A DNA stretch of 64,000 nucleotides, taken from Escherichia coli (GTDB lineage Bacteria; Pseudomonadota; Gammaproteobacteria; Enterobacterales; Enterobacteriaceae). The translations under genes were made by a program, and so were the position numbers. The stretch lies in the NCBI RefSeq assembly GCF_048403405.1, contig NZ_CP183129.1; one strand, given 5' to 3'. The notes below the pieces were generated by a model. The model worked only from the letters and a program-made list of their open reading frames with translations. It had not been told where the DNA came from and did no database searches. Within the stretch, counting starts at the first letter, position 1; every line of letters begins with the position of its first letter. Positions 60,036-64,000 of this stretch are shown here, piece after piece.

Positions 60036-60545
60036 TCATGCATTTACCATTTTGGCATTACGCCTGCGCCACATGGCAATGGCGGCAGCCACTAATGCCA
60101 GTTCCAGTAAAAACGACCAGTGTAATAAAAAATTGAGCCACCACGGATGATGTACCGCCGTAATATGAAAGAGTGCAAAGGGTTGGTTAACGAAAGGCAT
60201 CAACCACCAGATATCACCGACCAGCGTATCGAGTAATAAATGCACGATACCATTCAGGCAAAACACCACGCCCAACCACGCCGGAAGTTTATTCTTCGCA
60301 ATTGCGGCCCAGACTAATGTCGCCGCCAGCAGAGCAAACCATAATAATGGCCAATGAGACGGGTAAAGATGATGATGTCGTTGCCCGTTATCAACCAGAT
60401 AGCACCAAAAAAGATCAAAATCGGGCGCAACGGACCCAACTAAGCCAATAACCATCGCCCAGCGCGCATGACGAGCAATCAGTGGCAAGCGTTTCATTAA
60501 AGTACAAGTTATTAAATAACCAGCCGGAAGATGACCGATAAACAT
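60036..60545 (-). CDS. polytopic membrane protein, possibly DUF457/YdjM-like metal-dependent hydrolase
   Basis: ORF 60036..60599; ATG 60545 (MFIGHLPAGYL...) with AAGGA RBS; His-rich hydrophobic sequence; 7 bp downstream of prfH. Confidence 0.5.
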   Translation of the reverse strand: MFIGHLPAGYLITCTLMKRLPLIARHARWAMVIGLVGSVAPDFDLFWCYLVDNGQRHHHLYPSHWPLLWFALLAATLVWAAIAKNKLPAWLGVVFCLNGIVHLLLDTLVGDIWWLMPFVNQPFALFHITAVHHPWWLNFLLHWSFLLELALVAAAIAMWRRRNAKMVNA

Positions 60546-60606
60546 GACTATTCCTTTCGTTTTTCCCGCCGCTTTCACATAGAAAACGGCGGGAGACATT
60601 CCTCAA

Positions 60607-61221
60607 TTACACAGCGACAAAAGCCATCCCTGTAAACGTTCGTCGCGGGTTGCCACGTTCAATCTGGTGATGGAACATTCGCCGCTGCGATTTCAGCGCC
60701 GCGCTATTTTTCTGTTGCTGCTGCTCCAGCTTCCAGGCAATCAGCAATCGCGCCAGCCGTTTGTTAGCATGCTGGCTGCGCTCTGACTGAACCTTCACGC
60801 TAATCCCGGATGCCAAATGCGTGGCGCGTACCGCCGAGTCGGTTTTATTGACATGTTGACCGCCCGGCCCCGACGAACGCAGCGTCTCATACCGGATCGC
60901 ATCGGATTGCTCCTGCTCATCAGCGGTAAAACGCCCAATGCCCAGAAACCAGTTTTTGCGCCCATGATGAGGCCGATACGGACTCGGACAAATCCACTGA
61001 ATAGTGCCGCACCAACTTTCGCTTAATGCCCATGCATTATCGCCATCCAGAGAAACCAGCGCTGAACGCAGCGTGTCAGAGTAGCGGCCCGTTTCTGTTT
61101 CCAGCACCGTTACCGCGACGTCTTGTCGGGTAGCTTCTTTAATCAGCCTGTCCAGTGCCTTTTTCACTGCGAGACAACATTCTTCCGGCCCCTGCGCTGA
61201 GGAGAGTTGTAGCAAGATCAT
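60607..61221 (-). CDS. prfH: peptide chain release factor homolog PrfH (GGQ motif)
   Basis: ORF 60607..61305; start at ATG 61221 ([14 protein letters not shown]...) in ATGA overlap with rtcB stop; [16 protein letters not shown] motif. Confidence 0.8.
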
Positions 61222-62369
61222 CCTTTTTTCCCTCCACTGTTTTTGAGCGTTAGCACCGGACGCAGTCGCGCGACAGGAATAATTAAACCGGCTTGCACCA
61301 GACATTGCACCACACTTTCAGCCGATTTATAGGCTTGTGGCGCTTCTTCGAAGATGAGTTGTTTATCGCGACAAATCACCCGGCTGCCAAGTTCAGTACG
61401 CGAGAGTTGCGTCGCCGTGTAATTCGCTGCCAGACGCCCTTTACACTCGGTGCGCCCCCATTTACGCCCTGCCCCATGCGCCAGCGAGTGGAGCGTTTTT
61501 TCGTTCGCAACAGGTTTAACCAGCCAGGAGTAATCACCGCGTGAACCGGGAATAATCACCAGACCGTTGTCATCCGGCGTGGCACCTTTACGATGCAACC
61601 AGCCCTGTTGATCGCCGATTTGGCACGCGCTAACAAAGTTATGCGCCACATCCAGAACCGGACTTCCGGTGGCCTTAACTTGTTGCATTATGCGCAAAGC
61701 GATCATCTGGCGATTAATACGCGCAAACGCCAGCGCATCGTCATGTTCCGCAATATACCGTAGCGCGTCGTCACTGCCTTCAGGCAAACCATGATGCGAA
61801 AACGAGGCAATATGCCGCTGTAAAATAGACTGCCCCAACCCCCTCGAGCCGCTATGAACCAGCAGTTGCAGATGCTGCGCATCCAGACCTGCCAGTGCAA
61901 ACAGTTCAGCGTCGATGATTTCATCAACTTGTTGCAGTTCTGCAAAGTGGTTTCCGCCACCGATAGAGCCAAGCGAGCTGCGCCACGAATGCTGTGCAAA
62001 TGCTGACGGCAGGTTTTCCTCCAGCCAGCTTTCTTCAGCAACGTCATCCAAAGCTGATAATCGCTTTTCAAACTTATCGGCGTTGTATTTACGAGCGAGA
62101 ATATCTGTTTGCCATAGCGCCATGCCGCAGCCGATATCATTGCCGACCAGTGCCGGGTAAAAACGGCCTGCGGAGAAGAACGCTGCGCCAATCGGGTAGC
62201 CGCGTCCGGGATGTAAATCTGGCATCCCTACTACGCGCTGCATGTTGGGTAAATTTGCCGTGGTGTGTAATTGTTGGATCGCTAAACTCTCGATCCACAG
62301 GTCATCAGATGCGATGGTAAATACCGCATCGGATAAGGGACGAATATATTTGCCCATGTACCATTCCAT
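61218..62369 (-). CDS. rtcB: RtcB-family RNA ligase paired with prfH (RtcB2-type)
   Basis: 383-aa ORF with RtcB motifs ([27 protein letters not shown]); start may be ATG 62369 or 62357. Confidence 0.8.
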
Positions 62370-62675
62370 TTATACTCGTCATACTTCAAGTTGCATGTAC
62401 TGCGGCTGCGTTCGTTCACCCCAGTCACTTACTTATGTAAGCTCCTGGGGATTCACTCGCTTGTCGCCTTCCTGCAACTCGAATTATTTAGAGTATATAA
62501 ATATTAAAAATCAGGAAATGGCAGACGAATCCAGGGCAAGAAAAAAAGAATTAATCCTGGAAAGGTCTGCAAAGAGTCATTGATAAAGGATTTGTCATGA
62601 TTTACCTCCTTGCAGTTTGTGGAATAAGAAAACGCGCACATACTAGGCGGGTGTTATTTTCATTGCAAGCTGGAT

Positions 62676-63128
62676 TTAATGTTGCGGTTTATATCGCATA
62701 GAAAAATTAGTAAACCACGCTCCCCTGCATTCAACGCGCTGCTGCTTAACTGTCTGAAAACCATAACGTTCAAAAAAGGGTTTTGCGGTTATGCTGGCAT
62801 CTACCGTTAGTTCGGATTCAGACTTAATCAATGGTTTTAACAAAGCGCTGGCAACCCCACAGCGGGTGTATTCAGGGTCAACAAATAACATATCGATATA
62901 GTGTTCAACGCGGGAAATAAAACCAACCGGTTGTGCATTAATGATCGCAACCCACACTTGTGATTTCGCGAGTTTCTCCTTCCAGCGAGATTCGTCAATC
63001 TGCGCCCAGGCGGCAATTTGTTGTGGTGAATAATGCTGACTGGCGGTCATCGTAACCGCTCTAAGGAAAATAGCGCATAGTTGCTGAAAATCGCCAGGCT
63101 GATAGTTTCTTATTTGTATGTTATTCAT
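62676..63128 (-). CDS. yafP: GNAT-family acetyltransferase YafP
   Basis: 150-aa ORF, last gene of the dinB-yafNOP operon. Confidence 0.85.
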   Translation of the reverse strand: MNNIQIRNYQPGDFQQLCAIFLRAVTMTASQHYSPQQIAAWAQIDESRWKEKLAKSQVWVAIINAQPVGFISRVEHYIDMLFVDPEYTRCGVASALLKPLIKSESELTVDASITAKPFFERYGFQTVKQQRVECRGAWFTNFSMRYKPQH

Positions 63129-63137
63129 AATATAAAT

Positions 63138-63536
63138 TCAAAAACGCATGCGAAACGCTTCTGCCATTTTTCCAATTTTATGCATTTGGTTGTTATCTCG
63201 AGCCAGTTTATGAGGTTCAGGCTTCAGAATGGCAATGAGCAACCATGCTTGCTCATCAAACGCACCCTGACAATATACCAAATGCGCTTCGTCATTCGTT
63301 CTGCTGAATTGGCACAACTGTGGCGGAAATGGATTATTCACATTTGCCAGATGAATATGAGCAACTCGCTCAAATTTGATTAATGGCCAGGTAAACGAGT
63401 CGTCGTAGAGTGCATCGCGACCAAATATATCTGGCAAAATACCGTCACGCTTATAGGAAATAAAATCCGCCGTTAACGCATCAAGTTCCTCTGCTGTAAG
63501 TTGCAGGCGAATAAGTTTTGTTTTGAATACCCGCAT
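63138..63536 (-). CDS. yafO: ribosome-dependent mRNA interferase toxin YafO
   Basis: 132-aa ORF MRVFKTKLIRLQLTAEELDALTADF...; 3 bp after yafN stop. Confidence 0.85.
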   Translation of the reverse strand: MRVFKTKLIRLQLTAEELDALTADFISYKRDGILPDIFGRDALYDDSFTWPLIKFERVAHIHLANVNNPFPPQLCQFSRTNDEAHLVYCQGAFDEQAWLLIAILKPEPHKLARDNNQMHKIGKMAEAFRMRF

Positions 63537-63538
63537 CC

Positions 63539-63832
63539 TTATTCCTTAAAGTCATTGAAATCATCATCCGTCATATCATTAAGATATTGTTCAGCGCGGC
63601 GTGTAATTTCCTCTAATCTTGCAGCACTCGGACGGAAGCGCGCCTTTATGGGCTTTTTCTCCTCTTGTTCAGCAAGCATGTCCATTAACGCTTCGAATGC
63701 GCTGGCACTTAAGAGATATCCTGCGGGGCGATTATTAGAAAGAACCGCAACCGGTTGATCAATAAAGTATTTAGCTGGGTTTTTACGTAACTCAGTGATA
63801 TTGACCGATTTTTCAGCGAGAATTCGATGCAT
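63539..63832 (-). CDS. yafN: antitoxin YafN
   Basis: 97-aa ORF MHRILAEKSVNITELRKNPAKYF... Confidence 0.85.
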   Translation of the reverse strand: MHRILAEKSVNITELRKNPAKYFIDQPVAVLSNNRPAGYLLSASAFEALMDMLAEQEEKKPIKARFRPSAARLEEITRRAEQYLNDMTDDDFNDFKE

Positions 63833-63883
63833 ACAGTGATCCCCTCATAATAATGCACACCAGAATAGACATAATAGTATACA

Positions 63884-64000
63884 TCATAATCCCAGCACCA
63901 GTTGTCTTTCCATTTGCGGGTCAAGCAACGTCACATGCAGCCCCACCAGTCGCACACCGCGCCCGCCGCGGCGTTCATCCCAGGTTTTACGCGCGGTGGC
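63884..64000 (-). CDS. dinB: DNA polymerase IV DinB, 3' end only (gene continues beyond the window)
   Basis: Minus-strand reading ends ...LLDPQMERQLVLGL then stop at 63884-63886. Confidence 0.7.
   Translation of the reverse strand, partial: ATARKTWDERRGGRGVRLVGLHVTLLDPQMERQLVLGL

Follow-up and report, generated by a model that had tools for sequence, protein, structure and literature searches.

[quoted passage not shown] No evidence was found that speaks against this identification, yafN, yafO and yafP all being intact and ordinary. The genes are arranged as follows:

63884-64000, minus strand: 3' end of dinB (DNA polymerase IV), comprising the last 38 codons and the TGA stop, the rest of the gene lying beyond the window
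63539-63832, minus strand: yafN, Phd/YefM-type protein antitoxin, 97 aa (Pfam PF02604, NCBIfam NF007300)
63138-63536, minus strand: yafO, ribosome-dependent mRNA endoribonuclease toxin, 132 aa (PF13957, NF007377)
62676-63128, minus strand: yafP, GNAT-family N-acetyltransferase, 150 aa (PF13673, NF007338)

The three complete genes, whose limits in the list of open reading frames are exactly those claimed for them in an earlier note on this DNA, are real genes rather than chance reading frames. YafN scores 31.5 bits against the Pfam family PhdYeFM_antitox (PF02604, cut-off 29.8) and 196.7 against the NCBIfam equivalog NF007300 (cut-off 99), YafO reaches 130.8 bits against YafO_toxin (PF13957, E 2e-38, cut-off 25) and 243.3 against the equivalog NF007377 (cut-off 153), and YafP 72.6 bits against Acetyltransf_10 (PF13673, E 4e-20) and 320 bits against the equivalog NF007338 (cut-off 146). 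The minus strand of 63884-64000 translates to ATARKTWDERRGGRGVRLVGLHVTLLDPQMERQLVLGL*, the same as the C-terminus of K-12 DinB, and these last 38 residues bear out the statement of the earlier note that the window ends inside dinB. The spacers measure 51 bp between the dinB stop and the yafN start, 2 bp between yafN and yafO, and 9 bp between yafO and yafP; the last of these agrees with the value given previously, while the yafN-yafO gap, formerly put at 3 bp, is 2 bp by sequence, the junction reading TAAGGATG (TAA-GG-ATG). The organization of yafN and yafO, which are small, adjacent and co-directional, with the antitoxin first and a 2-bp gap, is that of a type II toxin-antitoxin locus. The G+C content of yafN, yafO and yafP is 42-44%, that of dinB (complete in the TUM14771 locus L001, 7385-8440) is 54%, and that of the window is 50%; yafP thus resembles the toxin-antitoxin pair in composition, and resembles dinB in its distribution.

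Six complete E. coli genomes, that of TUM14771 (NZ_CP128875) among them, match the final 4 kb of the window at 100% identity, and K-12 matches it at approximately 98%. In TUM14771, lafU, dinB, yafN, yafO, yafP, a gene for an RtcB-family ligase, prfH and a gene for a metal-dependent hydrolase follow one another on one strand, and pepD comes next, on the opposite strand. The closest characterized counterpart, dinB-yafN-yafO-yafP of K-12 (b0231-b0234), has the same genes in the same order and strand relation, with the same spacers of 51, 2 and 9 bp, and shows 98.2% DNA identity across 1208 bp; K-12 differs in that rtcB2 and prfH, intact here, are represented by the pseudogenes ykfJ and prfH.

In TUM14771 dinB, which extends beyond the window end, is complete (351 aa), lies directly upstream of yafN on the same strand, and is preceded by a LexA box, CACTGTATACTTTACCAGTG, a 20-mer that fits CTG-N10-CAG and is located in the dinB promoter, outside the window, 12-31 nt before the ATG. 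The earlier note had described the locus as an SOS-linked module and proposed to extend the sequence upstream; the extension offered by TUM14771 confirms this description, since the upstream sequence does encode the full DinB and does carry the LexA box. A LexA-repressed promoter before dinB, approximately 1 kb past the window end, would thus give rise to a single four-gene mRNA after DNA damage. In K-12, the induction of yafNO by mitomycin C comes from the dinB promoter and not from the proximal one (PMC2814082), and DNA-damage induction through read-through from PdinB has been reported for both K-12 and CFT073 (PMC2814082, PMC3105422); by analogy with these precedents, SOS read-through probably also reaches yafN, yafO and yafP in the present strain. 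A putative LexA box has in addition been reported in the proximal yafN promoter (PMC2814082), and a search allowing up to one mismatch to CTGT-N8-ACAG detected none there.

The proximal control region itself was delineated by promoter scan, repeats and the K-12 precedent:

63833-63912, minus strand: proximal yafNO promoter/operator region

It contains a promoter-like element, TGGAAA-18-TATGAT, located before yafN and whose -10 hexamer overlaps the dinB stop, it being of note that the consensus scans for promoters and terminators yielded site numbers no higher than those in shuffled sequences. A 21-nt direct repeat was detected in the same region, as were three TGTnnAY cores at 12-nt spacing (63883-63877, 63871-63865 and 63859-63853), which are followed by the yafN Shine-Dalgarno sequence, GAGGGG. 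These cores are operator-like and are candidate binding sites for YafN. With regard to K-12, where a promoter upstream of yafN was mapped experimentally and shown to be autoregulated by YafN (PMC2814082), one base is changed in the middle core and another strengthens the Shine-Dalgarno sequence (GAGGGT to GAGGGG). ATGTRYAY cores, again at 12-nt spacing, recur upstream of stand-alone yafNO modules in unrelated contexts, and since the same repeats precede those modules, the yafNO cassette appears to bring its own operator and promoter. On the K-12 model, this second, weak promoter at the dinB stop would be repressed by YafN, and would be derepressed when Lon degrades YafN in starvation or translation arrest.

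The yafNO pair has been established as a genuine toxin-antitoxin locus of type II whose induction requires Lon, and in K-12 the toxicity of YafO depends on translation or ribosome binding and is neutralized by YafN (PMC2814082); YafO binds the 50S subunit and brings about a cut in the mRNA 11-13 nt downstream of the AUG (reviewed in PMC7781912). Toxin and antitoxin activity, Lon lability and autorepression are expected to carry over from the K-12 alleles to those found here, in which case YafN, of the Phd/YefM type, would neutralize YafO, of RelE/HigB2 fold, and YafO would bind the ribosome and cause mRNAs to be cut 11-13 nt past their start codons. Translation of yafO is likely to be coupled to that of yafN, because the gap between them is 2 nt and the yafO Shine-Dalgarno sequence, AAGGA, lies inside yafN. 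YafN is 100% identical in amino acids to its K-12 counterpart. YafO is identical to that of K-12 at 129/132 positions, the substitutions being V33I, E66V and R75C, and of these I33 and C75 are seen in no other of the eight Escherichia sequences examined; positions 33, 66 and 75 are variable in a 125-member family alignment, and the invariant or near-invariant residues (F25, F38, G39, D41, H60, H62, L86, Y88, H109, A125 and F128) are all kept. The notion that YafO or YafP might be inactivated by their strain-specific substitutions was consequently set aside as unsupported, all of these falling at variable positions of the families. A separate matter of nomenclature concerns NF007300, and hence PGAP, which calls YafN a 'type I toxin-antitoxin system antitoxin', a name that has been propagated to thousands of genomes and that is in error, because YafN is a protein and its system is of type II.

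Sequence searches of the PDB with YafO and YafN gave no meaningful match. Because YafO has neither a solved structure nor a sequence match in the PDB, a deep alignment was built for it, the family comprising 355 representatives at 50% identity (E <= 1e-3) in an exhaustive profile search among 1.84 billion proteins. A first AlphaFold model from an alignment of 18 sequences was dropped (pLDDT 55), and the model from a 125-sequence alignment reached a pLDDT of 97.7. In this model YafO displays the alpha/beta microbial RNase fold of the RelE type, and a Foldseek search with it showed weak agreement with that fold. These data support, at the level of the predicted fold, the published 'RelE-homologous' label, and suggest that YafO adjoins HigB2 in the RelE superfamily. 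YafO has no detectable sequence similarity to any solved toxin; compared with the RelE/ParE-superfamily ribosome-dependent toxins that are paired with Phd/YefM antitoxins (YefM-YoeB, or HigB2 of Vibrio cholerae), it is larger (132 aa), carries a long C-terminal helix, and is reported to cleave 11-13 nt beyond the AUG and not in the A site (PMC7781912).

The four-gene form is one of two that coexist in the species. Among 5426 complete E. coli genomes, yafP was found in 5414, yafN in 2846 and yafO in 2843, corresponding to a four-gene to two-gene ratio of about 52:48, and in approximately 48% of the genomes dinB is followed by yafP with yafNO cleanly absent. Earlier splits of 60:40 and 50:50 (Gutierrez et al., PMC3105422) are thereby reproduced at an approximately 50-fold larger scale. 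The two-gene dinB-yafP operon, known from CFT073, HS, IAI39 and all B1 strains (PMC3105422), has the same dinB and yafP, and its flanks also match those of the present locus, with lafU upstream and rtcB2-prfH and pepD downstream; what it lacks is the 759-bp yafNO cassette, and in HS and IAI39 the stop codon of dinB shares an ATGA with the start codon of yafP, inside a single ATTATGA. Comparison of the four-gene and two-gene junctions defines the edges of the cassette here:

63884-63890, minus strand: upstream copy of ATTATGA, containing the dinB stop (left cassette edge)
63125-63131, minus strand: downstream copy of ATTATGA, containing the yafP start (right cassette edge)

The edges of the 759-bp cassette are therefore formed by a 7-bp direct repeat, of which two-gene strains hold a single copy, and by sequence the microhomology at these edges is 7 bp and not 4.

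Such a structure could have been produced in either direction. The four-gene form could be derived, a mobile yafNO cassette having been inserted into an ancestral dinB-yafP operon, and this possibility draws on the direct repeat that bounds the cassette, on the promoter/operator motifs that travel with yafNO in unrelated loci, on the integrase and IS element that adjoin one yafNO homologue, and on the low G+C content of the pair. It is nevertheless rather unlikely to be how the polymorphism arose, since the four-gene order is found in several Escherichia species, the outgroup described below also has it without conserving the flanking 7-bp repeat, the two-gene junction always carries the same single copy of ATTATGA, as expected of microhomology deletion, and at least three independent losses of yafNO have been inferred (PMC3105422). 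The evidence favours an old four-gene arrangement followed by repeated microhomology deletions, as proposed in that work, and an ancient insertion of yafNO with repeated deletions thereafter reconciles both directions.

The species distribution on which this preference for deletion partly rests includes E. whittamii and another Escherichia lineage with the four-gene order, and Escherichia sp. MOD1-EC7003 with the two-gene form. Outside Escherichia, a metagenomic Enterobacteriaceae contig (L019, 2097-4358) carries dinB, yafN, yafO, a GNAT gene and pepD, with its own LexA box at dinB, TACTGTATACTTGTCCAGTA; nqrF-nqrM lie upstream, and rtcB2-prfH are absent. Its products are related to those of the present locus with identities of 91% for DinB, 92% for PepD, 96% for Gpt, 84-85% for YafN and YafO and 56% for the GNAT protein, whose gene has a G+C content of 57% (44% for E. 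coli yafP), and which has either evolved fast or been replaced. As a scan of the genome collection for YafP was so narrow in its yield, returning four Escherichia loci, one 33%-identical planctomycete GNAT and nothing more, the linkage of dinB to a GNAT gene outside Escherichia rests on this one metagenomic contig family. Within the genus, a third architecture, dinB-yafN-yafP, was encountered in Escherichia sp. E1V33 (L005, 3676-4010), where yafO is deleted after approximately 9-10 codons and the antitoxin is left orphaned, and another lineage (L006, 3593-3991) has a nonsense codon in yafO, K120*; both are signs of toxin decay.

Since the GNAT toxins are a recognized toxin-antitoxin class, the adjacency of yafP to yafNO raises the question of a partnership between them. 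A three-component toxin-antitoxin system, with the acetyltransferase as a tRNA-acetylating second toxin of the TacT/AtaT kind or as a modulator, would be in keeping with the close packing of yafN, yafO and yafP on one strand and with the low G+C content that they have in common, but it is highly improbable, indeed close to refuted, given that yafP is kept in 99.8% of E. coli genomes whereas yafNO is absent from about 48%, that yafNO homologues and YafO-family toxins on Klebsiella/Pseudomonas plasmids occur in other contexts without a GNAT neighbour, that none of the GNAT toxins (TacT/AtaT/KacT/ItaT) is found among the PDB sequence matches of YafP up to E = 10, that no RHH/DUF1778 antitoxin precedes yafP, and that YafP was stated not to be a partner of yafNO in PMC3105422, citing earlier work. 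No cognate small antitoxin co-occurs upstream of yafP, the gene at that place being yafO in the present strain and, in about 48% of genomes, dinB. Stand-alone yafNO homologues, with identities of 48-69%, have neither dinB nor a GNAT gene nearby, and one of these is the pair that adjoins an integrase and an IS element. YafP is thus independent of yafNO, the conserved linkage being that of dinB with yafP, in agreement with the published view of dinB-yafP and yafN-yafO as independent pairs (Gutierrez et al., PMC3105422), and yafNO constitutes a self-contained, dispensable cassette that separates dinB and yafP, two genes linked in function. The wording of the earlier note, in which the GNAT gene was 'fused to' the toxin-antitoxin pair, is hence misleading; the genes are co-operonic and not partnered, and dinB-yafP persists without yafNO.

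It is worth recording, as a side observation on the toxin family, that the YafO-family toxins of IncFIB-type Klebsiella/Pseudomonas plasmids (L010, L011 and L012) are 32-38% identical to YafO and, as well as having no GNAT gene, are preceded not by a Phd/YefM antitoxin but by unrelated proteins of 165-205 aa without a Pfam match. These proteins may represent a different, uncharacterized class of antitoxin for the YafO family.

As an enzyme, YafP has both the GNAT domain and the pyrophosphate-binding loop (Q/R-x-x-G-x-G/A). Its nearest solved relatives, similar over the full length, are 2fiw of Rhodopseudomonas palustris (E 1.5e-16) and E. coli YjaB (E 3e-9), GNAT proteins of the Acetyltransf_10 type that have in common with it the x-x-G-x-A/G acetyl-CoA-binding loop; in YafP this loop reads T-R-C-G-V-A (residues 88-93) and aligns with R-G-C-G-V-G of YjaB. 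The protein is identical to that of K-12 at 145/150 positions, the differences being I22L, S39A, I74V, R90C and Y143S, with C90 and S143 found in no other of the eight Escherichia sequences examined. Position 90 belongs to the acetyl-CoA loop and is likewise Cys in YjaB; residue 143 is Thr in 2fiw, where Y143 is therefore not conserved. YafP differs from both relatives in being encoded in an SOS operon and in that nitroaromatic genotoxins have been implicated genetically (PMC3105422), experiments in CFT073 with 4-NQO and nitrofurazone having revealed a YafP-dependent modulation of nitroaromatic genotoxicity that is buffered by Pol IV (PMC3105422). From this genetic evidence, such genotoxins or their metabolites are candidate substrates that YafP would acetylate, with Pol IV buffering the effect.

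The manner in which yafP is translated links these observations to the polymorphism. No recognizable Shine-Dalgarno sequence is present at its start, the upstream sequence, GCGTTTTTGAATTTATATTATG, being devoid of a purine-rich ribosome-binding site, and for this reason yafP is probably translated by termination-reinitiation from the preceding reading frame. Reinitiation from yafO here, and from dinB in two-gene strains, is the most likely mechanism on the basis of these start regions, the ATGA overlap being a classic arrangement for it; the original paper had described this as 'frameshifting'. Because yafP seems to be translated solely in this manner, the presence or absence of yafNO may rewire YafP expression, and the difference between strains could in that case amount to a regulatory polymorphism of the SOS/mutagenesis response, and be more than a selfish toxin-antitoxin module being gained or lost; this remains a tentative proposal, to which only a low likelihood is attached. 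If it were true, the YafN-autorepressed, Lon- and starvation-responsive promoter of four-gene strains would drive yafN-yafO-yafP without dinB, uncoupling YafP from Pol IV, which buffers YafP-dependent cytotoxicity, and two-gene strains would tie YafP strictly to the translation of dinB.

The operon, its SOS control, the activity of YafNO, the independence of YafP and the four-/two-gene polymorphism had already been published between 2003 and 2011 (PMC3105422, PMC2814082), and the significance of the present locus goes little beyond the correct annotation of a textbook case. What is added here is the extent of the polymorphism (~52:48 across 5426 complete genomes), the 7-bp microhomology at the cassette edges, the four-gene order outside Escherichia, the operator-like repeats that accompany yafNO wherever it is present, and a high-confidence model of YafO that places it near HigB2.

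Some further observations concern the sequence downstream of yafP. The genes rtcB2, for an RtcB-family RNA ligase, and prfH, for a release-factor homologue, are intact at 60607-62357 on the minus strand, the strand of dinB-yafNOP, and overlap by 4 nt; they form a module for the repair of 16S rRNA cleaved by colicin E3 (PMC9223846, PMC9304027). Directly downstream of prfH lies a gene for a YdjM-family membrane protein, or 'metal-dependent hydrolase' (60036-60599, minus strand), absent at the same position in K-12, HS and IAI39. The family member ydjM of K-12 is under LexA control; at the present YdjM-family gene, a search allowing up to one mismatch found no LexA box. The consensus scan gave no terminator downstream of yafP and no promoter upstream of rtcB2, and a promoter picked out by eye after the yafP stop, TTGCAA-17-TAGTAT, agrees at 8/12 only and was discarded as unsupported by that scan. 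The spacer between yafP and rtcB2 holds an ERIC/IRU repeat (62371-62497) with the core GTGAATCCCCAGGAGCTTACATAAGTAAGTGACTGGGGTGA and inverted arms of 25 nt, which in Rfam gives a sub-threshold match to V_AS5 (49 bits, gathering score 96). This repeat is present in the window, in K-12 and in one other Escherichia species; HS and E1V33 have part of it, and IAI39 and two other lineages lack it.

The same spacer also contains an unannotated element of 136 nt (62505-62640, minus strand), which is at least 99% identical in 5342/5399 E. coli records, is nearly invariant across other Escherichia species, and is missing from the metagenomic contig, which has no rtcB2-prfH. With yafP ranging from 90 to 100% identity among its E. 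coli matches, the element is far more conserved than the gene beside it, as shown by its identity in these records together with its near-invariance across Escherichia. Full-text literature search returned no paper on the 15-aa peptide that it could encode, and one RtcB2-PrfH paper makes no reference to a leader. The reading frame in question is the following:

62598->62551, minus strand: small open reading frame of 15 codons, MTNPLSMTLCRPFQD, with a strong Shine-Dalgarno sequence (AAGGAGGT-N5-ATG)

A long hairpin is predicted after this frame, its 5' arm overlapping the end of the frame and the stop codon lying in the loop, and anti-Shine-Dalgarno pairing is also predicted in the element, the z of -1.8 being not significant. 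A possible role of the 136-nt element is that of leader peptide or attenuator for the ribosome-repair operon rtcB2-prfH.
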